Positions 3,421 to 34,315 of a stretch of DNA of 34,315 nucleotides are shown in pieces. The stretch comes from Holophagales bacterium UBA2201 (lineage in GTDB: Bacteria; Acidobacteriota; Thermoanaerobaculia; UBA2201). The stretch is from NCBI GenBank assembly GCA_002327305.1, contig DCUZ01000019.1, forward strand, positions 47,030 through 81,344, written 5' to 3'. Every line of letters begins with the position of its first letter. The first letter of the stretch is position 1. The notes beneath the pieces are model-generated. The model saw only the letters and a program-made list of their open reading frames with translations, was not told the origin of the DNA and did no database searches. Both the position numbers and the translations under genes were made by a program.

Positions 3421-5001
3421 ATGAAGAACCGGACCGCCTCCCTCAGCGCACCGCGACCCCCGACGAAGGCCCCCTTCCCCCTGAGGGCCGCCTGCGTGGA
3501 CATGGGCTCCAACGCCATCCGCTTCTTCGCCGCCGAGTTCGGCTCCCCCACCCAATCCACCGTCCTCGACGATGAACGCCTCCCCGTGCGCCTGGGGGCC
3601 GGCGTTTTCCTCTCCGGCCGCCTCGATGCGGCGGCGATGGAGGAGGCCCTGGCGTCGCTGGCGGGCCTCCCCGCGCGCCTTCAGGCCTTGAAGATCGATC
3701 TGTTCCGGATGGTGGCCACCAGCGCGGTGCGGGAAGCCGTCAATGGAAAGGCCTTCCTGGAGCGGGTGGAGAGGACGACGGGCCTGCGGGGCGAGACCAT
3801 CTCGGGCTACGAGGAGGCCCGCCTCATCCACCGCGCGGTGCGCGGGCGGGTCCCCATGGGGAGGCGGCCATGGCTGATGGTGGACGTGGGGGGCGGGAGC
3901 GTGGAGGTGACCCTCGCCGACACCGAGGGGCTGGTCTGGAGCGAATCGCACACCATGGGGGCCGTGCGCCTGTTGGAGGAGCTGGCCGGGGGAAGGCAGG
4001 AGCCGGGTCATCTCCGCCGCCTCCTGGAGGAATATGTAGCCACCCTCAACCTTCCCGCCGTCCTGGGGCGCCAGCGCCCCGCCGGCCTCATCGCCACCGG
4101 GGGCAACATCGACGCCCTGGCCCTCCTGGCGGGGGCCCTCCCGCCGAACGGCGGGCCCGGCCGGCTCCCAAGGGCCGACCTCCGAAAACTCATCGGAACC
4201 CTCTCGCGCCTCTCCCACGCCCGCCGGGTGCGCGACCTGGGCCTCCGCCCCGATCGGGCCGACGTCATCCTTCCGGCCGCCCTCGTCTACGACCGGGCCG
4301 CCGAGCTGGCGGGGGCCAGGGAAATCTGGGTTCCCCGCGCCGGGTTGAAGGAGGGGCTCCTCCTGGACCTGGTGGAGGACGCCGCCACCCACCGCGACCA
4401 TGTTGCGCGGCAGGACCGGCAGACCCGGGCGGGGGCCCTGGCGCTGGGGCGGCGGTACCGCTTCGACGAAGCCCACGCGGAGCAGGTCGCGTCCCTGGCG
4501 CTTTCGCTGTTCGACCAGCTGCGGCCCCTTCACGGCCTCGGAGAAACGGACCGCCGGCTCCTGACGGCCGCGGCGCTCCTGCACGACATCGGCAGTCACG
4601 TCTCCTACCGGAAACACCACAAGCACTCGCTCTACCTCATCGCCCAGTCGGAGCTCCCCGGATTCTCGGCGGAGCAGATGCTCCTCACGGCCAATATCGC
4701 GCGCTACCACCGCAAGGCGGAGCCCGGCCCGACCCATCCCGATTTCGCGGACCTGCCCCGCGGGGACCAGCGTCGGGTGCGGAAGCTCGCGGCCCTCCTG
4801 AGGGTGGCCGACGCCCTCGACCGCGAGCACCTCCAGGCCGTCCGGGGGATCAGGGCGCGGGGCGCGGGGCGCACGGTGCGCCTCCGCGTCGACGGGACGG
4901 GCGACCGGGTGCTGGAGCGGTGGGCCCTGCGGCGCAAGGCGGGGCTCTTCGAGCGGACGTACGGCCGGGAACTCATCCTCACCACAGGGGGAAAACCATG
5001 A
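3421..5001 (+). CDS. ppx: Ppx/GppA family exopolyphosphatase / pppGpp phosphohydrolase with C-terminal HD domain
   Basis: VDMGSNAIRF is the ASKHA N-terminal motif; the HD region reads HDIGSHVSYRKHHKHS. ATG 3421 was chosen and the 5' end is uncertain. Confidence 0.85.
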   Translation: MKNRTASLSAPRPPTKAPFPLRAACVDMGSNAIRFFAAEFGSPTQSTVLDDERLPVRLGAGVFLSGRLDAAAMEEALASLAGLPARLQALKIDLFRMVATSAVREAVNGKAFLERVERTTGLRGETISGYEEARLIHRAVRGRVPMGRRPWLMVDVGGGSVEVTLADTEGLVWSESHTMGAVRLLEELAGGRQEPGHLRRLLEEYVATLNLPAVLGRQRPAGLIATGGNIDALALLAGALPPNGGPGRLPRADLRKLIGTLSRLSHARRVRDLGLRPDRADVILPAALVYDRAAELAGAREIWVPRAGLKEGLLLDLVEDAATHRDHVARQDRQTRAGALALGRRYRFDEAHAEQVASLALSLFDQLRPLHGLGETDRRLLTAAALLHDIGSHVSYRKHHKHSLYLIAQSELPGFSAEQMLLTANIARYHRKAEPGPTHPDFADLPRGDQRRVRKLAALLRVADALDREHLQAVRGIRARGAGRTVRLRVDGTGDRVLERWALRRKAGLFERTYGRELILTTGGKP

Positions 5002-5027
5002 TCCCAAGGGGAGAAACCATGATCCCG
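4986..5027 (+). repeat. 21-bp tandem duplication spanning the RBS and start codon of the downstream kinase gene
   Basis: gggggaaaaccatgatcccaa is followed directly by ggggagaaaccatgatcccgg. Confidence 0.8.
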
Positions 5028-5684
5028 GGAAAACTGATCGCTGTGGAGGGGCTCGACGGGTCGGGCAAATCCACGCAGATCCACCTGGTCCATCAGTGGC
5101 TCCAGGGGCTCCGGTGCGGGGTCTTCTTCACCGAGTGGAACTCCAGCGGCCTCGTCAAGGGGGCGACGCGGCGGGGGAAGAAGCAGCAGATCCTCACCCC
5201 CGTCACCTTTTCCCTCATCCACGCCACCGACTTCGCCGACCGGTACGAGCGGCAGATCCTCCCCATGCTCAAGGGGGGGCACATCGTCCTGTGCGATCGC
5301 TACATCTTCACCCCCTTCGGCCGCGACGAGGTGCGTGGCTGCGATCCGAAGTGGCTGCGCACCCTGTACGGGTTCGCCCGCGTCCCCGACATCACCCTCT
5401 ACTTCCGCCTCCCCCTGGCCGTCTCGCTGGGGCGCATCCTGGAGGGCCGCCCCAAGTTGAAGTATTTCGAGGCGGGGATGGACATGGGGCTCTCTCCCGA
5501 CATCATCGAGTCGTTCAAGATCTTTCAGGGGCGTATCATGGAGCGGTACGACCGGATGGCCAAGGAGTTCAAGTTCACCGTCATCGACGCCACGCGCCCC
5601 ATTCACGCGCAGCAGGAGCAGGTGCGGAGGATCATCGCCCAGCGGATCGACCTGGCGAAATACCATCAGAGGGGTCTCCAATGA
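4998..5684 (+). CDS. thymidylate kinase-like P-loop kinase, paralog 1
   Basis: Walker A VEGLDGSGKST and motif DRY (LCDRYIF). ATGA overlap with the ppx stop. An alternative start at 5019 is created by the tandem duplication. Confidence 0.75.
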   Translation: MIPRGETMIPGKLIAVEGLDGSGKSTQIHLVHQWLQGLRCGVFFTEWNSSGLVKGATRRGKKQQILTPVTFSLIHATDFADRYERQILPMLKGGHIVLCDRYIFTPFGRDEVRGCDPKWLRTLYGFARVPDITLYFRLPLAVSLGRILEGRPKLKYFEAGMDMGLSPDIIESFKIFQGRIMERYDRMAKEFKFTVIDATRPIHAQQEQVRRIIAQRIDLAKYHQRGLQ

Positions 5685-6388
5685 GGGCCAAGCGCTGCTA
5701 CCTCAAGCCCCTTCCGGGCGTGGTCCCCGCCAAACTGCCGGGCCTCCTTCTCGTCATCGAGGGCCCGGACTCGTCGGGGCGCTCCACCCACATCGGCCTG
5801 CTGGCGCAGTGGCTGGAGGAGCGGGGCCACGCCGTGGCCCAGGCGGGGCTGAAGCGCTCCGAACTGGTGGGGCTGGAGCTGGAGCAGGCCAAGGCGGGGA
5901 ACGTCCTTTCGCCCCGTACCATGTCGCTCTTCTACGCCACCGATTTCTACGACCAGTTGGAGAACCGCATCGTCCCCGCGCTCAGGGCCGGCACCGTGGT
6001 CCTGGCCGACCGGTACTTCTTCACCCTCATGGCGCGCGACATCGTCCGCGGCGGCGACCGCTCCTGGCTGGAGTCGCTCTACGGGATGGCCATCGTCCCC
6101 GACGCCGTCTATTCGTTCATCGTCTCCTCCCGCACCCTGGTCCAGCGAACCCTCCACTCCCACGCCCTCATGGACTACTGGGAGTCGGGGATGGACCTGG
6201 GCCTCTCGCGCGACTGGTTCGACTCCTTCCTGGCCTACCAGCGGCGGATGCGGGTGGAGTTCCACCGGATGAAGGAAAAGTACGGGTTCGAAGAGATCAA
6301 CGCCAACCGCTCCATCCGCGCTATCCAGGCCGACCTGCGAGCCCGGGTCCAGACCGTTCTGGACACCCGGCTTGCAGGGATGAAGTAG
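5681..6388 (+). CDS. thymidylate kinase-like P-loop kinase, paralog 2, with a Lys-to-Arg Walker A
   Basis: IEGPDSSGRST, ADRYFF. Colinear similarity to paralog 1 (ATDF.D, VRGGD..WL..LYG, SGMDLGLS). ATGA overlap with paralog 1. Confidence 0.75.
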   Translation: MRAKRCYLKPLPGVVPAKLPGLLLVIEGPDSSGRSTHIGLLAQWLEERGHAVAQAGLKRSELVGLELEQAKAGNVLSPRTMSLFYATDFYDQLENRIVPALRAGTVVLADRYFFTLMARDIVRGGDRSWLESLYGMAIVPDAVYSFIVSSRTLVQRTLHSHALMDYWESGMDLGLSRDWFDSFLAYQRRMRVEFHRMKEKYGFEEINANRSIRAIQADLRARVQTVLDTRLAGMK

Positions 6389-6399
6389 GAGGACCTTCC

Positions 6400-6813
6400 A
6401 TGCCCACCCGTTCCGTCCGCAAGACCCAGCCCGTCCGCAAGGCCCGGCCCGTGCGCAAAGCCCCGCCCCAACCCAAAGCCGCCCCGGCCCCGAAACCCTC
6501 CGGAAAGGAGACCCGCAAGGCGCGCCACGCCGGGCGGCTGAAGGCCGGCCTATTGGCTCTGCGGACCACCCTCCAGGAGGTCCAGGAGCACTATTCGGTC
6601 CGGACCAACGGCCTGCTCGTCCAGATGATGCAGGTCGTGGAGCCGCCCGAGGGGTCGGAGCACCCGGTCCTCCCCTCCCGCAAGACCGTGGACCGGATGC
6701 TGGAGGCGATCCAGGGTCTCAAGGTCAAGCCCAAGAAGGGGCGGGGCAAGGATTTGCAGCGCCTCCAGGACCTGCTCGAGGCGCTGTGGATCCAATTGCC
6801 CCCTCAACCGTAA
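6400..6813 (+). CDS. small basic protein with an N-terminal P-V-R-K-A repeat tail (hypothetical)
   Basis: RBS aggagga precedes ATG 6400. N-terminus MPTRSVRKTQPVRKARPVRKAPPQPKAAPAPKPSGKETRKAR is encoded by three 15-bp nucleotide repeats of ccgtccgcaaggccc. Confidence 0.6.
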   Translation: MPTRSVRKTQPVRKARPVRKAPPQPKAAPAPKPSGKETRKARHAGRLKAGLLALRTTLQEVQEHYSVRTNGLLVQMMQVVEPPEGSEHPVLPSRKTVDRMLEAIQGLKVKPKKGRGKDLQRLQDLLEALWIQLPPQP

Positions 6814-6855
6814 ATACAGGCTGAGGGCTTTAGGCTGAAGGTTGAAGGAATAGCT

Positions 6856-7854
6856 TTGATATTAAAACGCCAGGTGCGTGTCGCATCCTATGGACTCCAT
6901 CCCGGCGACACGCTGGCCGAAGCGGCGCGGAAGATCATCCTCAAACAGGTGGCACGGATGCGCAAGCACGCGCCCGGGACCCGTGAGGGGAGGGACTGCG
7001 AGGCCCTCCACGACATGCGGGTGGCCACGCGCCGCCTCCGCTTCGCCCTCCGCCTCTTCGCCCCCTGGATGCCCCCCGGACGGGCCGACCGTCTCCGGAC
7101 GGACCTGCGGCGCGTGGCCCTTGCCCTGGGGCGGGTGCGGGACCTGGATGTGTTCCTGGAGGGCCTGCCCTCCCTGGCGGACGAGGCCGGGCTGTCCGCG
7201 GATCAGCGCCGGGCCCTTCTGGGCGCCCTGCGGCGCAGGCGCGGGCAAGGGCGTTCGGTGCTGGTGCGGATGCTCGCCGGCCGCCGCTTCCTGGCGCTGG
7301 TCCTCGTCCTGGAGCGGGTCCCGCTGAGCGGAGCGGACGCGCCCGCGCGGGAGGCATCGGGCCGCATGCTCCGGAAGGCCGCCCGCGCCCTTCGCGCCTG
7401 GGGGCGCCGGGCCGACCTCACCCGTCCGGCGGACCTGCACCGCCTCCGCATCCTGTTCAAGCGCCTCCGCTATACCTGCGAGTATTTCAACGAACTCTAC
7501 GGAGGCGCCCTCGACGGCGCCATCGCCCGGTTCATCCGGTTCCAGGACTGCCTGGGCCGCTACCAGGACGCCGTCATCGCCGCCTCCCTTCTGGACGGGT
7601 TGCCCGGAAGCCGGAAACCGGAGGACGGGGGCGACGCGGGGCGTGACCGAGATCGACCTGATCTTGCAGGGGCGACGGCGAAAATTCAGGAGATCCTGCG
7701 CGCCGAAAGGGGGCTTCAGAGGGAGGCGTTTGCGGAGTTGTGGGTGGACTTTCCCCTGCTGATGCGCGCCTTCACCAAACTCCAAGGACTCCCGGAACGA
7801 CCCGGGACGGAGTCCGTGCCTTCGGGCACGGACCCGGAGGGGCGCAACCCATAA
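6856..7854 (+). CDS. CHAD domain protein (polyphosphate-associated helical domain)
   Basis: HDMRVATRRLRFALRLF and further His/Arg-rich helices are typical of CHAD. TTG start with RBS gaagga. Confidence 0.7.
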   Translation: MILKRQVRVASYGLHPGDTLAEAARKIILKQVARMRKHAPGTREGRDCEALHDMRVATRRLRFALRLFAPWMPPGRADRLRTDLRRVALALGRVRDLDVFLEGLPSLADEAGLSADQRRALLGALRRRRGQGRSVLVRMLAGRRFLALVLVLERVPLSGADAPAREASGRMLRKAARALRAWGRRADLTRPADLHRLRILFKRLRYTCEYFNELYGGALDGAIARFIRFQDCLGRYQDAVIAASLLDGLPGSRKPEDGGDAGRDRDRPDLAGATAKIQEILRAERGLQREAFAELWVDFPLLMRAFTKLQGLPERPGTESVPSGTDPEGRNP

Positions 7855-7912: not shown

Positions 7913-7941
7913 TTGACACTGATTGTTTATTAGCATACAAT
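7913..7941 (+). promoter_or_regulatory. sigma70-like promoter for marR (TTGACA-N17-TACAAT) within an AT-rich operator-like region
   Basis: ccTTGACActgattgtttattagcaTACAAT. Confidence 0.45.
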
Positions 7942-7964: not shown

Positions 7965-8456
7965 ATGGGATTGAAGGACGAGCTGGGGCTTCCCCACCCC
8001 GTCGCCACGCTGGCCCACGAGGCCATGCTCAACATCTTCGTCACCGCCGAGGCCCTCGGCAAGGAGGCGGACCGGGTCCTCCAGCCGCACGGCCTCACCA
8101 AGGCCCAGTTCGACATCCTCATGCTGCTGGAACACCAGACGGCCGACGGCGGGGCCGACCAGAGCACCCTCGGCCGGATGCTGGTGGTGAACCGCTCCAA
8201 TGTCACGGGCCTGATCGACCGGATGGAGCGGGACGGGCTGGTGAAGAGGATGGCCGATCCGGCCGACCGGCGCGTCAACCGGGTCAGGATGACTCCCAAG
8301 GGGATGAAGGTCCTCCGCGCCGCCGAGCAGGCCTATGTCGCGAGGACGCGCGAGGTGGTCGCCGCCCTCCGCGCCGCCGAGCAGGAGGCCCTCTGCCGGA
8401 CCCTGGAGCGGGTGCGGGCCTCCCTGCGCAAAAACCCTAATCCAAAGAAGGCCTAA
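7965..8456 (+). CDS. MarR family transcriptional regulator
   Basis: Winged-helix MarR signature (LTKAQFDILMLLE...RSNVTGLIDRMERDGLVKR). My hand count and the ORF-track frame disagree by 1 nt at the start. Confidence 0.85.
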   Translation: MGLKDELGLPHPVATLAHEAMLNIFVTAEALGKEADRVLQPHGLTKAQFDILMLLEHQTADGGADQSTLGRMLVVNRSNVTGLIDRMERDGLVKRMADPADRRVNRVRMTPKGMKVLRAAEQAYVARTREVVAALRAAEQEALCRTLERVRASLRKNPNPKKA

Positions 8457-8532
8457 ATGATCACCCGCAAGAATCCCCTGGATTTTTTTGCATTATATGG
8501 TTCACTAGTATACTGTATATGTACACTCTATC

Positions 8533-8625
8533 TGCTTCCTGTTCCTTGTTCCTCGTTCCTCGTTCTTCGTTCCTCGTTCTTCTGCCTTCCTTCTTCATCC
8601 TTCCTCCTTCTACCTTCTTACTTTA
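8533..8625 (+). repeat. pyrimidine-rich tandem heptamer array (about 12 units; cgttcct / cgttctt / ccttctt) in the leader of the radical SAM gene
   Basis: Strict 7-nt periodicity. It is preceded by AT-rich palindromes (agtatact at 8505-8525). Confidence 0.75.
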
Positions 8626-8642
8626 TCTCACGGAGGCCCCCC

Positions 8643-10022
8643 ATGAACATCCTGCTGATCGCCCCCGCCAGCGGCCCATGGCGCGGCGTGGGCCGCCGCC
8701 GTCTCTTCGGGGGACGGACCTTCCGCTTCTCCATGCTCTCGCTCCTCTCCGTCGCCGCCGAGACGCCCCCCGGAACCACCATCCGCATCGTGGACGAACA
8801 GATCGAAGAGGTGCCCACCAGCGGACGCTTCGACCTGGTGGGGATCACCTCCATGACGGCCGCGGCGCCCCGCGCCTATGCTTTGGCGGACCGTTTCCGC
8901 GCCGCGGGGGTCCCCGTCGTGTTGGGGGGGATGCACCCCACCTTCATGCCGGAGGAGGCCCTGGCGTACGCCGACGCGGTGTGCGCCGGCGAGGCCGAAG
9001 GGGTCTGGCCCGCCATCGTGGAGGACGCCCGGGCCGGCCGCCTCGGAGGCGTGTACCGCGCTCCCGCGCCGGCCGACCTTTTCCTCCTCAAGCCGGTCCC
9101 GCGCGCCCTGTTGCGCTCCCGGCATTATGCCACCGTCCAGGCGGTCCAGGCCACCCGGGGGTGCCCGCACCAATGCGCCTTCTGTTCCGTCTCCGCCTTC
9201 CATGAGGGGCTGTTCCGCACGCGCCCCATGGAGCAGGTGATCGCCGAGATCCGCTCCCTGCCCGGAAGGTTTTTCATTTTCACGGACGATTCCCTCGCGG
9301 CCGAGCCCGACTACGCCAAAGCGCTATTTGCGGCCCTGGCCCCGCTGAATAAGCGGTGGATGACCCAGGCCACCCTCGGGATCGCTGACGACGGAAAGTT
9401 GCTGGACCTGGCGGAGCGCGCCGGGTGCGTGGCGGTCTTCACGGGGTTGGAAACCTTCAGCGCTGAAAACCTCGAGGGGGTCGGCAAAGGGTTCAACAAG
9501 GCGGAGGAATACCGGGATCGGATCGCCCGCCTGCACGCCCATGGCATGGGCGTCGAGGCGGGCATCGTCTTCGGGTTCGACCACGACCGGCCGGAGGTCT
9601 TCCGCAACACCCTGGCGATGCTGGACGCATTACGCATCGACATGGCCCAGATCTCCATCCTCACCCCCCTGCCCGGAACGCCGTTCTTTAAGGCCATGCG
9701 CGGCCGCATCCTGGACGGCGACTGGTCCCATTACGACTACCATCACGCCGTTTTCCAGCCGGCGGGGATGTCCCCTGAGGAACTGAAGGCCGGACACGAC
9801 TGGATCACGCGCGCATTCTACTCCCCGCGACGCATCGCCCGGCGCCTGGGGTGGGCGGCGACGCGCAGGCACGCCGCCCGGGTCCTCCCCTTCGCCGCGG
9901 CCATCAATCTTGCCTATAATAGACGGGTGGCGAATTGGAATATCCGGGGATGGGACCCCGCCGGCGAACCCCCCGGCTTCACCCTTCACCACAAGCCGCT
10001 GGCCAAAACGGCCGGCGCCTGA
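8643..10022 (+). CDS. B12-binding domain-containing radical SAM protein
   Basis: N-terminal B12-binding fold, CPHQCAFC radical SAM cysteine triad, RBS ACGGAGG. Confidence 0.85.
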   Translation: MNILLIAPASGPWRGVGRRRLFGGRTFRFSMLSLLSVAAETPPGTTIRIVDEQIEEVPTSGRFDLVGITSMTAAAPRAYALADRFRAAGVPVVLGGMHPTFMPEEALAYADAVCAGEAEGVWPAIVEDARAGRLGGVYRAPAPADLFLLKPVPRALLRSRHYATVQAVQATRGCPHQCAFCSVSAFHEGLFRTRPMEQVIAEIRSLPGRFFIFTDDSLAAEPDYAKALFAALAPLNKRWMTQATLGIADDGKLLDLAERAGCVAVFTGLETFSAENLEGVGKGFNKAEEYRDRIARLHAHGMGVEAGIVFGFDHDRPEVFRNTLAMLDALRIDMAQISILTPLPGTPFFKAMRGRILDGDWSHYDYHHAVFQPAGMSPEELKAGHDWITRAFYSPRRIARRLGWAATRRHAARVLPFAAAINLAYNRRVANWNIRGWDPAGEPPGFTLHHKPLAKTAGA

Positions 10023-10429: not shown

Positions 10430-10455
10430 ACGGCGCAGTGAATATGCGCCGGTTG

Positions 10456-10483
10456 CGAGTTTAAAGTTTCGAGTTTCGAGTTG
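10456..10483 (-). repeat. GAAAC heptamer array (inverted copy)
   Basis: gagtttaaagtttcgagtttcgag is the reverse complement of ctcgaaactcgaaactttaaactc. It matches the 13996-14035 array almost exactly. Confidence 0.7.
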
Positions 10484-10653: not shown

Positions 10654-10688
10654 AGGGCGCAGCATGCTGCGCCCCTACGGCATTTTTC
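10654..10688. terminator. perfect 20-bp palindrome gggcgcagcatgctgcgccc plus T-run; likely bidirectional terminator
   Basis: The palindrome is followed by ctacggcatttttcg. A similar element is at 17363-17384. Confidence 0.5.
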
Positions 10689-10693
10689 GTCCT

Positions 10694-10726
10694 GAACTCG
10701 AAATTCGAAACCCGAAACTCGAAACT
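10694..10726 (+). repeat. GAAAC heptamer array (tcgaaat-tcgaaac-ccgaaac-tcgaaac)
   Basis: Tandem 7-mers, inverted relative to 10456-10483. Confidence 0.7.
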
Positions 10727-10734
10727 GGCTGTCG

Positions 10735-12225
10735 CTACAGGGCCTTTTTCACCGCCTTGGCGAAGGTCTCCAGCACCTTGACGCGGGCATGGTTCTTGTC
10801 CACGGCCTCAACGAGGGTCCACGGCGCGTGGGGCGTGGAGGTGCGCTCCACTAGCTCGCCGACGGCGGCCTCGTAGGCGTCCCACTTATTGCGGTTGCGC
10901 CAGTCCTCTTCGGTGATCTTGAACTGCTTCCAGGCGGTCTTCTCCCGCTCCTTGAACCGGCGCAACTGCTCCTCGGGGGAGATGTGGAGGAAAAATTTCT
11001 GCACGATGTAGCCGTGCCGGATCATCGCCTCCTCGAACTCGTTGATCTCCGCGTAGGCCCGTTTCCATTCGTGCTCTTTGGCAAACCCCTCCACCCGCTC
11101 CACCATGACGCGCCCGTACCAGGAGCGGTCGAAGATGACCACGCGGCCCCGGCCGGGGAGGTGGCGCCAGAACCGCCAGAGGTAGTGCTGGGCCCGCTCC
11201 TCCTCGGTGGGGGCGGCGATGGGGATGACCCGGTAGTCGCGGGCGTCAAGGGAGGCCGTGAGGCGGCGGATCGTGCCCCCCTTGCCTCCGGCGTCCCACC
11301 CCTCGAAGACCAGGACGGCGGAGAGGCCCTTGGGTTTGGCCTTGCGCCAGAGGCGGTTGACCCGTCCCTGGACCTCCTCCAGCCGCTCCTTGTATTCCTT
11401 GTCCTCCAGCTTCTTCGTCAGGTCGAGGCGGTCCAGGACGCTGTGGATGCCCTCCCCCAAAGCCCCTTTCTTCCCCGCCCTGGACGCTGTCGCGGCGGCA
11501 GGTTTCGACGGAGGCGCTTCCTGGAGACGGGCGGTGAGCCCCTCCATGATGGTGGTGCCCACGGTCAGCATCTGGTGGCGGCGGTCCTTGGCTTCCACGA
11601 TCGTCCACGGCGCCTCGGCCGTGTGGGTCTCCTGCAGGACCTCCTCGTCGATGGCGCGGAAGTGGTCGTAGAGCTTGTAGTGCTTCCAGTCCGTCTTGGT
11701 CACGCGCCAGGCGGTGCGGGGGTCCGCCTCCAGCGCCTTGAGCCGCTTTTTCTGGTCCTTCTTGGAGAGGTGGAACCAGAACTTGATGAGCAGGACCCCG
11801 TCGTCGGTGAGGGCCTTCTCCAGGAGGCGGATGCGCTCCACCTCCCGCTCCAGGTCCCCCTTCGAGATCTCGTCGTAGGCCCGCTGGAGGATGGGGCGGG
11901 TGTACCAGGAGCAGAAGAAGATCCCCGTGCGCCCCTTGGGCGGCATGGCCAGCCAGTAGCGCCAGTCCTCGGGGCGGCCCCGCTCCTCCCCGGAGCGGGG
12001 GCCGAAGGCGGTGGTCTGCAGAAAGCGGGGGTCCATCCACTCGTGGAGGGTGTTCAGCACCTCCCCCTTGCCCGCCCCGTCGGCCCCGTGGATGAGGATG
12101 AGGACGGGAAAGCGGCGGTCCTTCAACTGCTCCTGCGCCTGCAGAAGCTTGATGCGCAGGTCGGGGACCCGCTTGTCGTACTCTTCCTTGGCAACCTTCA
12201 ACCCCAGCTCCACGGCTTCGAACAT
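10735..12225 (-). CDS. ppk2: two-domain polyphosphate kinase 2 (PPK2 class II, polyphosphate:AMP/NMP phosphotransferase-like)
   Basis: Two PPK2 modules with Walker A HGADGAGKGE and EGWDAGGKGG; about 497 aa. RBS GGAGGTG. Start ATG 12225 (MFEAVELG). Confidence 0.9.
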   Translation of the reverse strand: MFEAVELGLKVAKEEYDKRVPDLRIKLLQAQEQLKDRRFPVLILIHGADGAGKGEVLNTLHEWMDPRFLQTTAFGPRSGEERGRPEDWRYWLAMPPKGRTGIFFCSWYTRPILQRAYDEISKGDLEREVERIRLLEKALTDDGVLLIKFWFHLSKKDQKKRLKALEADPRTAWRVTKTDWKHYKLYDHFRAIDEEVLQETHTAEAPWTIVEAKDRRHQMLTVGTTIMEGLTARLQEAPPSKPAAATASRAGKKGALGEGIHSVLDRLDLTKKLEDKEYKERLEEVQGRVNRLWRKAKPKGLSAVLVFEGWDAGGKGGTIRRLTASLDARDYRVIPIAAPTEEERAQHYLWRFWRHLPGRGRVVIFDRSWYGRVMVERVEGFAKEHEWKRAYAEINEFEEAMIRHGYIVQKFFLHISPEEQLRRFKEREKTAWKQFKITEEDWRNRNKWDAYEAAVGELVERTSTPHAPWTLVEAVDKNHARVKVLETFAKAVKKAL

Positions 12226-12722: not shown

Positions 12723-12845
12723 CGGCCGGAAAGCGGAAAGGCGGGAATGCCGGAAGGCTCCCCCGCCCCATGCGAGGCCGTTCGGCGTACGGCGTTCAGC
12801 GAAGCTGCCCCTGGGGGCAGGAGCGTACCCAGAAAGGAGTTGGGA

Positions 12846-13995: not shown

Positions 13996-14035
13996 GAACT
14001 CGAAACTTTAAACTCGAAACTCTAGACTTGTTTCT
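13996..14035 (+). repeat. GAAAC heptamer array (tcgaaac-tttaaac-tcgaaac-tctagac-ttgtttc)
   Basis: Lies 10 bp upstream of the C-tract-flanked promoter. Confidence 0.7.
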
Positions 14036-14044
14036 ATCCCCCCC

Positions 14045-14073
14045 TTGACACCCCCCCCGGGGGGGAATAAAAT
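14045..14073 (+). promoter_or_regulatory. consensus-like promoter cccccTTGACAcccccccc-N17-TAAAAT driving the Fe-S operon
   Basis: The -35 is embedded in poly-C tracts; the spacer is 17 bp. Confidence 0.5.
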
Positions 14074-14204
14074 GGACGGGAGAGGCCTTATTTACTTGAA
14101 ATGGTTAAACTTAACCCTGCCAGGGGCGTCCTCCCGGGGAAACCTGAGGCGAGGAGGGGGGAGGGGGGGCAGGAAGAGGAAAAATCCACTCGATCGGAAC
14201 CCTC

Positions 14205-15374: not shown

Positions 15375-15860
15375 ATGTCCCGCACCCCCCTGCCCTACAG
15401 CAAGGTCCTCCTGGACCACTTCCGCAACCCCCGCAACCAGGGGCCCATGGAGGCGGCCGACGTCGTCGCCAAGGCCGGCAGCCCCGCCTGCGGCGACATG
15501 ATCACCTTCTACCTCAAGGTCGCCGGCGACGCGGTGGAGCGCATCTCGTTCGAGAGCTACGGGTGCGCCGCCAACATCGGCACCGCTTCGTACCTGACGG
15601 AACTGGTGGCCGGCCGGCCGCTGGAGGAGGCGTGGAAGGTCTCCTGGAAGCGCCTCTCCGACGACCTGGGCGGCCTCCCCAAGGTGAAGTTCCACTGCGG
15701 CATCCTGGCCGTGGGGGCCCTCCAGCGGGCCATCCGTGAGTACTACCGCGCCCGCGGCGCCGTCCCGGCCTGGATACCCCCGGACCTGACGGAGGAGGAG
15801 AAGAACGCCCAGGAAGAGGAAGAGCTGGCCTGCTCCATCGAGCACAAGCTCCACCCATGA
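15375..15860 (+). CDS. NifU/IscU-like Fe-S scaffold protein with acidic C-terminal extension
   Basis: The three scaffold cysteines are GSPACGD, YGCAAN and FHCGI. Confidence 0.8.
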   Translation: MSRTPLPYSKVLLDHFRNPRNQGPMEAADVVAKAGSPACGDMITFYLKVAGDAVERISFESYGCAANIGTASYLTELVAGRPLEEAWKVSWKRLSDDLGGLPKVKFHCGILAVGALQRAIREYYRARGAVPAWIPPDLTEEEKNAQEEEELACSIEHKLHP

Positions 15861-17352: not shown

Positions 17353-17362
17353 GCCTCGGTTG

Positions 17363-17384
17363 TGGGGCGCGGCATGCAGCGCCC
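17363..17384 (+). terminator. near-palindrome ggggcgcggcatgcagcgcccc (same family as 10654)
   Basis: GCATGC-centred GC-rich inverted repeat after the gene end, followed by AT-rich sequence. Confidence 0.4.
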
Positions 17385-17497
17385 CTACTGGTTATTATAT
17401 CCATCTAACATTTATTTGCGCCCCTTTCCGTCAAACACCTTGAACCCGAGGCCCGTATTGTGATATGGTAAGCCGAATTTTATTTAAGGAGAGACCT

Positions 17498-17848
17498 ATG
17501 AAGAGAGCCACCGTGTTGTTCACTTTCCTGGCGTTCATCCTTGTCCTGGCCGGCTCCCTGGCGGCGGCCGACGCCCCGGCCGACATCAAACTCACGGCCA
17601 AGAACGGCGATGTCACGTTCCCCCACAAGGCCCACGCGGAGGCGCTGAAGATCGCCTGCGCCACCTGCCACCACACCACCAAGGAGGGCGAGGCGGTCCA
17701 GAAGTGCTCCGCCTGCCACGGCGTGGACGCCAAGGCCCCCAAGGCGCAGGACGCCTTCCACAAGCAGTGCCAGGGCTGCCACAAGGACGAGAACGCCAAA
17801 AACGCCAAGAAGGCGCCCGTCAAATGCACGGAGTGTCACAAGAAATAG
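17498..17848 (+). CDS. periplasmic tetraheme cytochrome c3 family protein
   Basis: Signal peptide plus four CxxCH motifs (CATCH, CSACH, CQGCH, CTECH) in 116 aa; RBS aaggagag. Confidence 0.85.
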   Translation: MKRATVLFTFLAFILVLAGSLAAADAPADIKLTAKNGDVTFPHKAHAEALKIACATCHHTTKEGEAVQKCSACHGVDAKAPKAQDAFHKQCQGCHKDENAKNAKKAPVKCTECHKK

Positions 17849-17870
17849 CGGCACCACCATAGGTGAAACC

Positions 17871-17905
17871 AAAAGGGGGGCCCCGTGGGCCCCCCTTTAA
17901 TTTTT
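17871..17905. terminator. bidirectional intrinsic terminator between cytochrome c3 and the protease gene
   Basis: aaaa-ggggggccc-cgt-gggcccccc-tttaattttt: a 9-bp GC stem flanked by A-run and T-run. Confidence 0.75.
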
Positions 17906-23429: not shown

Positions 23430-23440
23430 GTGCGGAGCGG

Positions 23441-23613
23441 GGTGGCTGATGGTTGAACGAAAATACCGCACCCCCGTCCCCGCTCCGAAATCATAAATCC
23501 GAAATCCGATATTCCATATCGAACGAAAATACCGCACCTTAAAAGGTGCGGCTACATCCCCCTACTTCAACGCTCCAACGGCGCGAGAACCGCGCACCCT
23601 GAAGGGTGCGGCC
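23441..23613. repeat. cluster of related GC-rich hairpins (REP-like) plus terminator
   Basis: gtgcggagcgggg ... ccccgctccg; two copies of gaacgaaaataccgcacc; hairpins ccgcacc-ttaaaa-ggtgcgg and ccgcgcaccc-tgaa-gggtgcggcc. Confidence 0.6.
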
Positions 23614-23731
23614 GCATTCCACCCTCCCAACGCTCCCCTGCGCCGCCCCGTATCGCAGGGTGTGACGACACACAACCCGGGATTGATGATGGATGTCACA
23701 AATCTTGAATGAACGAATTTTGGAGGAATGT

Positions 23732-28425: not shown

Positions 28426-28575
28426 GCGTAGAGGGCCAGGCCGGGATGGTTTCTTTGTAGGGGCACCGCATGCTGTGCCCTTGCGGTGGTAAGAGCGAGC
28501 CGCCCTCTCCCGATCAGTCTATGAAAGAGGCGCTTCACGGCAAGGACTTCCAGGCGTAGAGGGCCAGCGCGGCCC
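28420..28575. repeat. 28-bp direct repeat of the cdsA 3' terminus flanking a 100-bp insert between cdsA and dxr
   Basis: acttccaggcgtagagggccagcgcggcc (28548-28575) versus acttccacgcgtagagggccaggccggg (28420-28447). The 28407..29120 ORF reuses the CdsA C-terminus YAWKSLP. Confidence 0.7.
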
Positions 28576-30049: not shown

Positions 30050-30080
30050 ACTTTGAACCTGAAACCTGGAACTTGAAACT
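30050..30080 (+). repeat. GAAAC heptamer array (ctgaaac-ctggaac-ttgaaac)
   Basis: Same repeat family as 13996 and 10694; lies 34 bp upstream of a C-tract-flanked -35. Confidence 0.65.
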
Positions 30081-30114
30081 GGGCGGGAGGTAGCGCGGAA
30101 TATCCCCCCCCGCC

Positions 30115-30146
30115 TTGACACGCCCCCCCGTCTGCGTTACTATAAT
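30115..30146 (+). promoter_or_regulatory. consensus promoter cccccccccgccTTGACAcgccccccc ... TACTATAAT upstream of the flotillin gene
   Basis: -35 TTGACA in a poly-C context; -10 TACTAT (17 bp) or TATAAT (20 bp). Confidence 0.5.
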
Positions 30147-34013: not shown

Positions 34014-34056
34014 CGTGAGAGAAAATGCCCACAGCAATCGTCCTGTGTTTATTCTG

Positions 34057-34140
34057 TCCGGCTTTCCGGCTTTCCCGCGTTCCCGCGTTCCCGCTTTCCC
34101 GCCTTCCAGCCTTCTAGCCTTCCAGCCTTCTAGCCTTCCC
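34057..34140 (+). repeat. pyrimidine-rich tandem heptamer array (YTTCC core) in the leader of the downstream gene
   Basis: ccggctt-tccggct-ttcccgc-gttcccg-cgttccc-gctttcc-cgccttc-cagcctt-ctagcct-tccagcc-ttctagc-cttcccg. Confidence 0.75.
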
Positions 34141-34150
34141 GAGGTGACCC

Positions 34151-34315
34151 ATGGCCGGTGATATTTTCAACTTGGAAGCCTACAAGCAATTCGTCGAGGC
34201 CCTGGGCCCGGCCCTGCAAGGTCCCAACATCCGCCACGTGGACCAGGACTGGCTGGAACCGCGGGCGCGGGAGTTCGGGACCCGGACCAAGTACGGCTCC
34301 TACGGCTGGCGCTCC
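34151..34315 (+). CDS. 5' fragment of a hypothetical protein; continues past the window end
   Basis: ATG 34151 (MAGDIFNLEAYKQFVEALGP...), open to the window end; preceded by the heptamer array. Confidence 0.4.
   Translation, partial: MAGDIFNLEAYKQFVEALGPALQGPNIRHVDQDWLEPRAREFGTRTKYGSYGWRS

Follow-up and report, generated by a model that had tools for sequence, protein, structure and literature searches.

The window analysed here is a stretch of 34,315 nucleotides from contig DCUZ01000019.1 of Holophagales bacterium UBA2201. On its plus strand, a marR-family regulator gene (positions 7965-8456; Pfam MarR/MarR_2, with the same gene call in four assemblies) is followed in the same direction by a gene encoding a B12-binding radical SAM protein (8643-10022; Pfam B12-binding and Radical_SAM). 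The 186-nucleotide spacer between these two genes holds, from 5' to 3', a small hairpin with a T-run, an AT-rich palindromic block, a tandem array of pyrimidine-rich heptamers that we call array 1, and the start region of the radical SAM gene (8632-8645), where the Shine-Dalgarno (SD) sequence GGAGG (8632-8636) and a C-run precede the ATG at 8643, a start conserved in orthologues. The window matches the metagenome-assembled genome GCA_002402485.1. Its closest relatives by EF-G are few (79-91% identity, with the next at 64% or less), and the named EF-G neighbours, at 53-64% identity, are assigned to Thermoanaerobaculia, Vicinamibacterales or Acidobacteriota, which points to an Acidobacteriota-like lineage.

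Array 1 occupies positions 8533-8623 of the plus strand and is made of 13 pyrimidine heptamers in a single register, where the first-pass annotation, drawn from the letters of the sequence, had counted about 12. In order, the units are TGCTTCC, TGTTCCT, TGTTCCT, CGTTCCT, CGTTCTT, CGTTCCT, CGTTCTT, CTGCCTT, CCTTCTT, CATCCTT, CCTCCTT, CTACCTT and CTTACTT. The 93-nucleotide stretch 8533-8625 contains 4 A, 35 C, 8 G and 46 T, hence 87% pyrimidines, in agreement with the CU-rich tract of that length described earlier. Lag analysis gives identities of 0.74 (lag 7) and 0.75 (lag 14), while the best value at any lag from 2 to 12 was at most 0.60 in 5000 composition-preserving shuffles. Tandem Repeats Finder (TRF) likewise calls the array, with scores of 43-67 and with alignments of period 21 as well, and delimits a near-perfect core at 8536-8579 (6.4 copies, 89% matches). 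Units 2-7 (about 8540-8581) are near-identical and follow the pattern YGTTCYT; they appear to be young. Units 8-13 (8582-8623) are degenerate, with the pattern CNNYCTT. The periodicity that had been called strict is thus strict in register but not in sequence, the 3' half being degenerate. Assembly artefacts do not account for the arrays: the whole marR-radical SAM spacer is identical in four independent assemblies (L001-L004), and a fifth (L060) has no difference inside it. No inverted partner of array 1 was found within 2.5 kb on either side, the sole outstanding pair being one between 10452 and 10695 to which we return below.

All reading frames are open across array 1 because pyrimidine tracts cannot hold stop codons. 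We considered a coding N-terminal extension of the radical SAM gene (open reading frame (ORF) 8457-10022) and ruled it out: the orthologues share the start MNILLIAP, and the leader of a relative, L052, has an in-frame TAA. The array is non-coding, in keeping with the first-pass view that coding does not explain its periodicity.

Upstream of the array, a promoter scan that returned three sites (0.4 were expected in shuffles) identified a sigma-70-like promoter for the radical SAM gene on the plus strand, TTTGCA-16-TATACT at 8487-8514, whose hexamers align with TTTGTT/TATACA in the relatives L052 and L054. Array 1 sits 3' of the predicted -10 hexamer (8509-8514) and 5' of the ATG; transcription probably starts near 8521, which would place the array in a 5' untranslated region (UTR) of about 120 nucleotides. 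The promoter overlaps the AT-rich palindromic block at 8494-8525, which covers the -10 hexamer. The palindrome search found ACTAGT, AGTATACT and TGTACA there, as well as an imperfect palindrome of 16 nucleotides, and both the palindromes and the upstream marR gene are as the first-pass annotation reported them. The block is kept in all five aligned orthologous leaders, and in L052 and L054 it contains a perfect 8-1-8 palindrome, ATATATAC-A-GTATATAT. At the sequence level it combines what is expected of a MarR operator, namely a palindrome that overlaps the promoter and is conserved together with the regulator, and we infer that the block is the promoter and presumed MarR operator of the radical SAM gene. 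An AT-rich sequence resembling it also overlaps the promoter-like site of marR itself, TTGACA-17-TACAAT at 7913-7941. On the minus strand, a further promoter-like site (TATACA-16-TATAAT, 8492-8519, 10 of 12 matches) lies inside the palindromic block and points leftward, antisense to marR; it may be a by-product of operator palindromy. Between the marR stop codon and the block, the hairpin AATCC-CCT-GGATT and its T-run (8472-8489, plus strand, read from the sequence) may act as a weak terminator. The T-run and a GC-rich palindrome before it are kept in L052 and L054; the terminator scan made no call at the hairpin.

Comparison of orthologous leaders gives the array a recent history. In orthologues whose radical SAM protein is at most 69% identical (L005-L008 and L055, the last with the gene behind another upstream gene), there is no array, and the operator is followed directly by the SD and the ATG. 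In syntenic relatives at 76-77% identity (L052/L053 and L054), a shorter pyrimidine tract made of TCNCNTC units stands in the same place. TRF missed the degenerate arrays of L052 and L054, and lag analysis was needed to show that these tracts are 7-periodic (P = 0.0006 in L052 and 0.07 in L054). The number of units differs by species: 13 here, about 8 and about 6 in the relatives. The three tracts share a 3'-terminal CTYACTTT, and all three are richer in C than in G (38% C and 9% G in the window, 42% and 13% in L052, 45% and 5% in L054). Absence from close relatives with no change in expression had been named beforehand as an observation that would speak against a role for the array; what we find is absence at 69% identity or less and, at 76-77%, a shorter version with other units. 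In these alignments array 1 appears as an insertion between the conserved operator block and the SD. Its 3' units would be ancestral to a small clade that includes the sister species, and the six YGTTCYT units would represent a recent expansion in this species.

Is such an array a property of the radical SAM gene, as the first-pass annotation had assumed? We extended the region to 48 kb through overlapping contigs of the same organism, using the gene calls supplied with the contigs, and searched it for tandem arrays of the same kind. The 48 kb contain 15 arrays of period 7 and 3 of the period-8 type, when dinucleotide-preserving shuffles predict 0.55 period-7 arrays and 680 kb of control sequence, taken from 47 bacterial loci unrelated to this one, yields 0.92 per 48 kb. 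The arrays are not randomly distributed with respect to genes: 16 of the 18 are intergenic in a sequence of which 9.4% is intergenic (binomial P = 5e-15). This puts 16 arrays into 4.5 kb of intergenic sequence, 13% of which consists of array DNA; among the 25 gaps of 40 nucleotides or more between genes, 12 hold at least one. Arrays of period 3, 6, 12 and 18, by contrast, are all coding, as are those of period 9 with one exception (14151-14174). The units fall into loose families (GTTTCRA/GTTCCAG, GCSGGAA(A), AGGCTGA and YGTTCYT), and the arrays are found 3' of stop codons, 5' of promoters, within operons and in two cases immediately before a start codon; across the 48 kb there is no particular association with start codons. 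With at least seven more period-7 or period-8 arrays in the window itself, array 1 belongs to a genome-wide intergenic feature rather than to one gene. In two of the relatives closest by EF-G, L064 and L066 (91% and 86% identity), we found no arrays, but the syntenic part of the window genome is also free of them, which makes this comparison uninformative.

Repeats of this description are known. Long simple sequence repeats (LSSRs) were described by Mrazek, Guo & Shah in 2007 and, as relayed in later papers (PMC4679880, PMC4692102), have units of 5-11 nucleotides, with heptanucleotides the commonest in repeat-rich genomes. According to the same accounts, units that are not a multiple of three are kept out of genes, and slippage has been proposed as the cause. 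All three features of LSSRs that could be examined here were found: tandem length, an excess of period 7 in the 48 kb, and restriction to intergenic DNA. As far as these accounts describe the class, the likeness extends to head-to-tail arrays longer than expected by chance, to the separation of intergenic non-triplet periods from genic triplet multiples, to a sporadic phylogenetic distribution and to the proposed slippage origin. The differences are a seemingly unusual density, the presence of octamers alongside heptamers, and an uncultured, Acidobacteriota-like host outside the surveys they report.

The diversity of units within this population bears on another proposal, in which array 1 acts at the DNA level as iterated binding sites for MarR or some other protein, or as a curvature or spacer element modulating the promoter. 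The array adjoins the operator, three units make 21 bp, or about two helical turns (TRF also reports period-21 alignments), and a protein partner has been speculated for heptamer repeats in Nostoc (bioRxiv 10.1101/2022.06.06.494920). The element conserved in all orthologues is nevertheless the upstream AT-rich palindrome, of a type typical for MarR dimers, and the array is lineage-specific, being absent or built of other, unconserved units where the regulator is retained. It also lies downstream of the promoter, and unit sequences are so diverse genome-wide that no single binding specificity could apply. A protein-binding array, one of the functions first put forward for this locus, finds no support here and we regard it as very unlikely.

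The second pyrimidine-rich array of the window, array 2 (34057-34141, plus strand; TRF and lag analysis), had been presented as being of the same type as array 1. The array exists and is rich in pyrimidines, yet it repeats every 8 nucleotides rather than every 7: about 10 octamers (TTTCCGGC, TTCCCGCG, CCTTCCAG, CCTTCTAG) fill 85 nucleotides of spacer with a lag-8 identity of 0.83. The array abuts the SD GAGGTGA (34141-34147), just 5' of the ATG at 34151, and is identical in four other assemblies. It lies in a spacer of 137 nucleotides (34014-34150, plus strand) between an aminotransferase gene and a PEPCK-like gene, and comparison with two relatives shows this spacer to be species-specific. 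In L189 and L190, whose aminotransferases are 92% and 76% identical to that of the window, the distance from stop to start is only 1-2 nucleotides (gcgTGAccATG and gtcTGAaATG, respectively). At its 3' end the spacer still shows the ancestral TGAcc(c)ATG, which today supplies the SD GAGGTGA. Given the 1-2-nucleotide junction in relatives and the 137-nucleotide spacer here, array 2 records an insertion, with expansion, that is specific to this species and that took place in a formerly translationally coupled junction. Some array positions are older than that of array 2. Arrays are found 3' of the PEPCK-like gene in both lineages. The AGGCTGA-like heptamers at 6818-6848 (plus strand; TRF, lag-7 P = 0.002) fill the 42-nucleotide spacer between the genes for hyp137 and a CHAD protein, and the orthologous spacer of 43 nucleotides in L052 is 7-periodic too, with other units (CAGNCGS; P = 0.004).

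Tandem repeats upstream of genes readily suggest phase variation, and a slippage-prone, phase-variable spacer was among the functions first proposed for array 1. Its structure, with perfect units at the 5' side, decayed units at the 3' side and a copy number that differs by species, agrees with an origin through tandem duplication or slippage. When copy numbers were compared, however, array 1 had the same length in all five assemblies that cover it and array 2 in all four, with no indels in the 7- or 8-nucleotide arrays. Between one of these assemblies, L001, and the window there are 53 differences in 12.6 kb (99.58% identity). In L060 some bases are ambiguous, and an 18-nucleotide in-frame coding repeat at 6413-6468 is longer by one copy. 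This repeat (CCGTCCGCAAGGCCCAGC, 3.1 copies), in a 137-residue hypothetical protein, is the sole repeat-length polymorphism among the compared strains. Array 1 lies downstream of the promoter hexamers, outside the spacer between -35 and -10, and outside the ORF, so it is no classical contingency switch. At the resolution of consensus assemblies, array 1 is a stable, partly decayed repeat, minority length variants being possible. A contingency locus, in which gain or loss of heptamers switches or tunes radical SAM expression within populations, would account for the near-perfect core of six units and for the unit numbers of 13, about 8 and about 6 between species, and the heptamer repeats in the 5' UTR of the Haemophilus influenzae hmw genes are indeed phase variable (PMC12721329). 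Yet the lengths are constant even in the strain at 99.58% identity, while the 18-nucleotide coding repeat does vary. Slippage is suppressed by the substitutions that interrupt the units; the organism lives free in the environment, and the product of the gene is no surface antigen. We hold this explanation to be extremely improbable.

What, then, might the array do in the RNA? The first-pass annotation had also considered a structured or S1-recruiting leader. The leader position of the array is backed by the promoter-like site and the orthologue alignment, but a structure of its own is not predicted. The minimum free energy of the 152-nucleotide leader is -11.7 kcal/mol, not a stable fold when compared with shuffles (z = 0.28), and the self-structure of array 2 is no better than that of shuffles (z = -0.80). 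A riboswitch-like stable fold was rejected on these values. Rfam 15 gave no matches at the gathering score over the whole window and, in the array regions at E <= 1, chance-level hits only (E about 0.85); a scan of the window for tRNA and tmRNA found none. The one helix predicted in the leader is a 5-bp CCUCC/GGAGG pairing, with no G-rich arm. In the Boltzmann ensemble, the GGAGG at 8632-8636, the only purine run, is paired with array positions with a probability of 0.99-1.0, a pairing that would mask the SD rather than serve recruitment. Opening a 16-nucleotide segment around the ribosome binding site (RBS) is predicted to cost 8.8 kcal/mol when the array is present, a value that falls to 3.6 kcal/mol on its deletion. 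The corresponding values are 11.7 in L052, 10.5 in L054 and 9.1 for array 2, versus 4.3-8.4 kcal/mol in array-less orthologues, and 7.0 ± 2.0 kcal/mol when a random sequence of 67% GC takes the place of the array. Redundant CCUYC motifs may thus mask the SD, as a property of composition and not of heptamer order.

The classical mark of a Rho loading site is untranslated RNA rich in C, poor in G and devoid of structure. Among all 78-nucleotide segments of the 34-kb window, both strands considered, 8550-8627 has the highest C/G ratio (31 C to 5 G); array 2 is among the seven highest-ranking on its own strand. The predicted RNA of 8550-8627 has the composition of a Rho utilization (rut) site, that is, about 70-80 untranslated nucleotides, C-rich, G-poor and unstructured. 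It resembles such sites further in the regular spacing of its predicted YC dimers over about 80 nucleotides; it differs in that rut sites are not normally tandem repeats, array 1 being rut-like by composition only. Either SD masking or Rho loading would be expected to lower or delay expression of the radical SAM gene after MarR derepression. By the computation used, SD masking, Rho loading and neutrality are inseparable.

These predictions would also agree with a rival reading in which array 1, more than a tolerated repeat, has been selected as an RNA element that regulates in cis, its C-rich, G-poor composition being maintained by selection. It would work as a multivalent anti-SD decoy that damps translation or senses temperature, as a rut site that attenuates transcription in the untranslated leader, or in both ways. 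A pyrimidine-rich, G-poor leader stands at the same place in three species in spite of different units; pairing between SD and array is predicted with a probability of about 0.99 in all three as well as for array 2; and the most extreme excess of C over G in 34 kb comes without competing structure. There is a precedent for action at the RNA level in the (ATCTTTC)n repeat in the 5' UTR of hmw1A (PMC12721329). On the other hand, shuffled arrays mask the SD almost equally, and more distant orthologues work without an array. Persistence at one position could also result from a persistent slippage hotspot, and in the set of at least 120 metagenome contigs introduced below, Y-rich heptamer arrays show no preference for positions upstream of an SD and start codon (1 versus 1 of 15, few cases). 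Selection for an RNA element is possible, but we consider it doubtful.

Comparison with characterized heptamer systems sets array 1 apart from each of them. In H. influenzae, the pyrimidine heptamers (ATCTTTC)n of the hmw1A 5' UTR pair with a downstream G-rich arm, the RNA is processed by RNase III, and expression is inverse to repeat copy number (PMC12721329). Like the repeats of hmw1A and hmw2A, array 1 is a pyrimidine-rich heptamer array between promoter and RBS, here in a predicted 5' UTR. The hmw hairpin, however, combines about 10 repeats with a G-rich arm of 17 nucleotides, whereas the purine partner of array 1 is the 5-nucleotide SD only, and no long hairpin of the hmw type was predicted for its leader. 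The hmw repeats are also perfect and hypervariable, those of array 1 imperfect and invariant in the compared assemblies. Array 1 stands outside the hmw system, sharing position and pyrimidine nature with it and missing the long hairpin and the hypervariability. In marine Beggiatoaceae, TAACTGA repeats form heptamer arrays a few nucleotides upstream of start codons, and translational roles through binding of S1, Csp or CsrA have been proposed for them (PMC4679880). That system has one dominant unit, where we find many unit families, and our arrays stand as often after stops or upstream of promoters as before starts. The short tandemly repeated repetitive (STRR) sequences of cyanobacteria and the GGGAATC/GGGGAYT repeats of Xanthomonas and Nostoc (PMC4692102) are alike in that several heptamer families share a genome, are intergenic, vary in length and sequence among close species at the same site and include some inverted pairs between convergent genes, as does the 10452/10695 pair. 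They differ in units and in taxon: the STRR heptamers of heterocystous cyanobacteria, CCCCAGT, TTGGTCA and CAACAGT, are not the units found here (YGTTCYT, GTTTCRA, AGGCTGA and others). Array 1 contains no G-runs, so that a G-quadruplex reading is inapplicable.

Taken together, we think it likely that array 1 is a member of a genome-wide intergenic population of LSSRs with units of 7, sometimes 8, nucleotides that is characteristic of this uncultured, Acidobacteriota-like lineage, a damping effect on expression being part of this joint reading. Local tandem duplication or slippage would have created the array inside the 5' leader of a MarR-controlled B12-binding radical SAM gene, between the conserved AT-rich promoter/operator and the RBS, with the oldest units at the 3' end and the newest, the six YGTTCYT units, at the 5' end. 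It would now be imperfect and stable and would not function as a phase-variation switch. About 90 nucleotides of C-rich, G-poor, pyrimidine-rich RNA would thereby be added to the leader, in which anti-SD-like CCUYC motifs could compete for the gene's own GGAGG and whose composition would also suit Rho loading. The likeliest net effect would be that expression is damped after MarR derepression, or uncoupled from transcription. Array 2 would represent the same repeat class with octamers, inserted into the former 1-2-nucleotide junction of two translationally coupled genes.

Several points weigh against this interpretation. The census covers 48 kb of the genome, 6.6 kb of which is array-free. Elsewhere the arrays occur in both orientations and in many contexts, and no single RNA-level role fits all of them. 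Placement of array 1 in a 5' UTR rests on a consensus match and on conservation. SD masking is not specific to the order of the heptamers, as shuffled arrays give 7.9 ± 1.2 kcal/mol for opening the RBS, and the SDs of array-less orthologues are also predicted to be mostly paired, with coding sequence instead. As for stability, only one of the compared assemblies is clearly another strain, and consensus assemblies hide variation within populations.

The remaining arrays of the window illustrate the range of settings. A (GTTTCGA)n array at 10452-10482 on the plus strand lies 22 nucleotides after the stop of a plus-strand gene, and its inverted partner at 10695-10726 on the minus strand lies 8 nucleotides after the PPK2 stop; the pair forms an inverted repeat, I1, of 35 nucleotides with 83% complementarity and arms 212 nucleotides apart. 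At a distance of 2 nucleotides after the RidA stop comes an octamer array of GCCGGAAA-like units (12725-12755, plus strand), which in reverse complement belong to the unit family of array 2. Plus-strand heptamer arrays are also found upstream of a TTGACA promoter flanked by C-runs ((AACTCGA)n, 13997-14028), in the gap between hyp262 and hyp355 ((TCCGAAA)n, 23484-23509), and in the divergent uppS/band-7 promoter region, upstream of TTGACA...TATAAT ((AACCTGA)n, 30056-30079). Two strong promoter-like sites have TTGACA within C-runs, at 14040-14075 and 30100-30142 (CCCCCCCTTGACACCCCCCCCGGGGGGG... and CCCCCCCCGCCTTGACACGCCCCCCC...TATAAT), each some 20-40 nucleotides downstream of a heptamer array preceded by GGGGCGGGG.

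GTTTCRA arrays are not confined to this organism. An exact scan found (GTTTCRA)3GTT in at least 120 JGI metagenome contigs (L069-L188), with GC contents of 0.32-0.69 among the matches listed. In 707 kb of the listed contigs, TRF called 263 arrays of period 7; periods 8 and 9 gave 31 and 21, respectively. Among the matches listed there are 127 GTTTCRA arrays, and for 44 of them an inverted (YNGRAAC)n partner stands no more than 300 nucleotides away, as in the 10452/10695 pair of the window. Such inverted pairs could form a long hairpin built of repeats; a few are followed by T-runs. Rfam searches of fifteen metagenome contigs with hairpin arrays returned tRNAs only, and a literature search for GTTTCRA arrays by literal sequence returned nothing relevant. 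In the window genome, the five arrays next to a stop codon all read GUUUC when taken in the direction of the gene that ends there. In the listed metagenome contigs, with crude ORFs, array orientation showed no bias with respect to genes (++ 12 versus -- 15), and a general orientation rule was dropped.

Other repeats accompany the arrays. Most arrays of the GTTTCRA type or of purine-rich units are followed 3' by a C-rich box, (T/A)CCCCCRCCC(T), seen at 12756-12770 and, in the L056 extension, at about 14355, 14463, 15850 (reverse complement), 17605-17615, 17651-17665 and 18100 (reverse complement). In two cases a conserved AATGCAAATTGCA comes directly after the box. Modules of array and C-rich box stand in inverted orientation on either side of the small ORF hyp88. 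Arrays 1 and 2 have no C-rich box. A palindrome resembling repetitive extragenic palindromic (REP) elements, GTAGGGGCRCAGCATGCTGYGCCCCTAC, recurs in intergenic DNA at about 10655-10685, 17360-17385 and 28455-28485, in L056 at about 15790-15830 and in the relative L066 at 17793-17888. A second palindromic family, CCGCACCYTNAARGGTGCGG, preceded by GAACGAAAATA, occurs at 23440-23620 and at the 3' end of L052, with two to three copies in a single gap of 300 nucleotides. Around the marR-radical SAM pair (3421-7854 and 10735-12225) lie polyphosphate-related genes, namely Ppx/GppA, two thymidylate-kinase-like genes, CHAD and PPK2, and the order Ppx-Tmk-Tmk-hyp-CHAD-...-MarR-radical SAM is preserved in the relatives L052 and L053.

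Arrays of 7 or 8 nucleotides might in addition be seen as a fast-evolving toolkit for leaders and spacers. Pyrimidine arrays before starts would then be anti-SD or Rho-loading modules whose copy number sets expression, insertion into a junction, as for array 2, would uncouple genes, and GTTTCRA pairs would perhaps form an undescribed, widespread class of hairpins. We offer this as speculation, and unlikely in its full extent.

The observation at the marR-radical SAM spacer is real and highly non-random, and the gene-specific interpretations first attached to it are mostly unsupported. The repeat is of a known kind, the intergenic heptanucleotide LSSR, and its function is as unsettled as in analogous populations; an effect in cis of array 1 on the RBS and on Rho loading, as modelled here, is plausible. 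For annotation, this is a caution: a striking repeat next to one gene should first be compared with how common such repeats are across the genome, and only then be assigned a role specific to that gene. The cause and the function of the over-representation of heptanucleotides in some bacterial genomes have been in question since 2007, and those of the cyanobacterial STRRs since 1990; this lineage adds an unusually dense case, with about half of the intergenic gaps in the 48 kb occupied. It also offers two natural comparisons: a MarR-controlled leader that in related species has no array, about 6-8 units or 13 units, and an operon junction of 1-2 nucleotides in relatives versus an array-bearing spacer of 137 nucleotides here.

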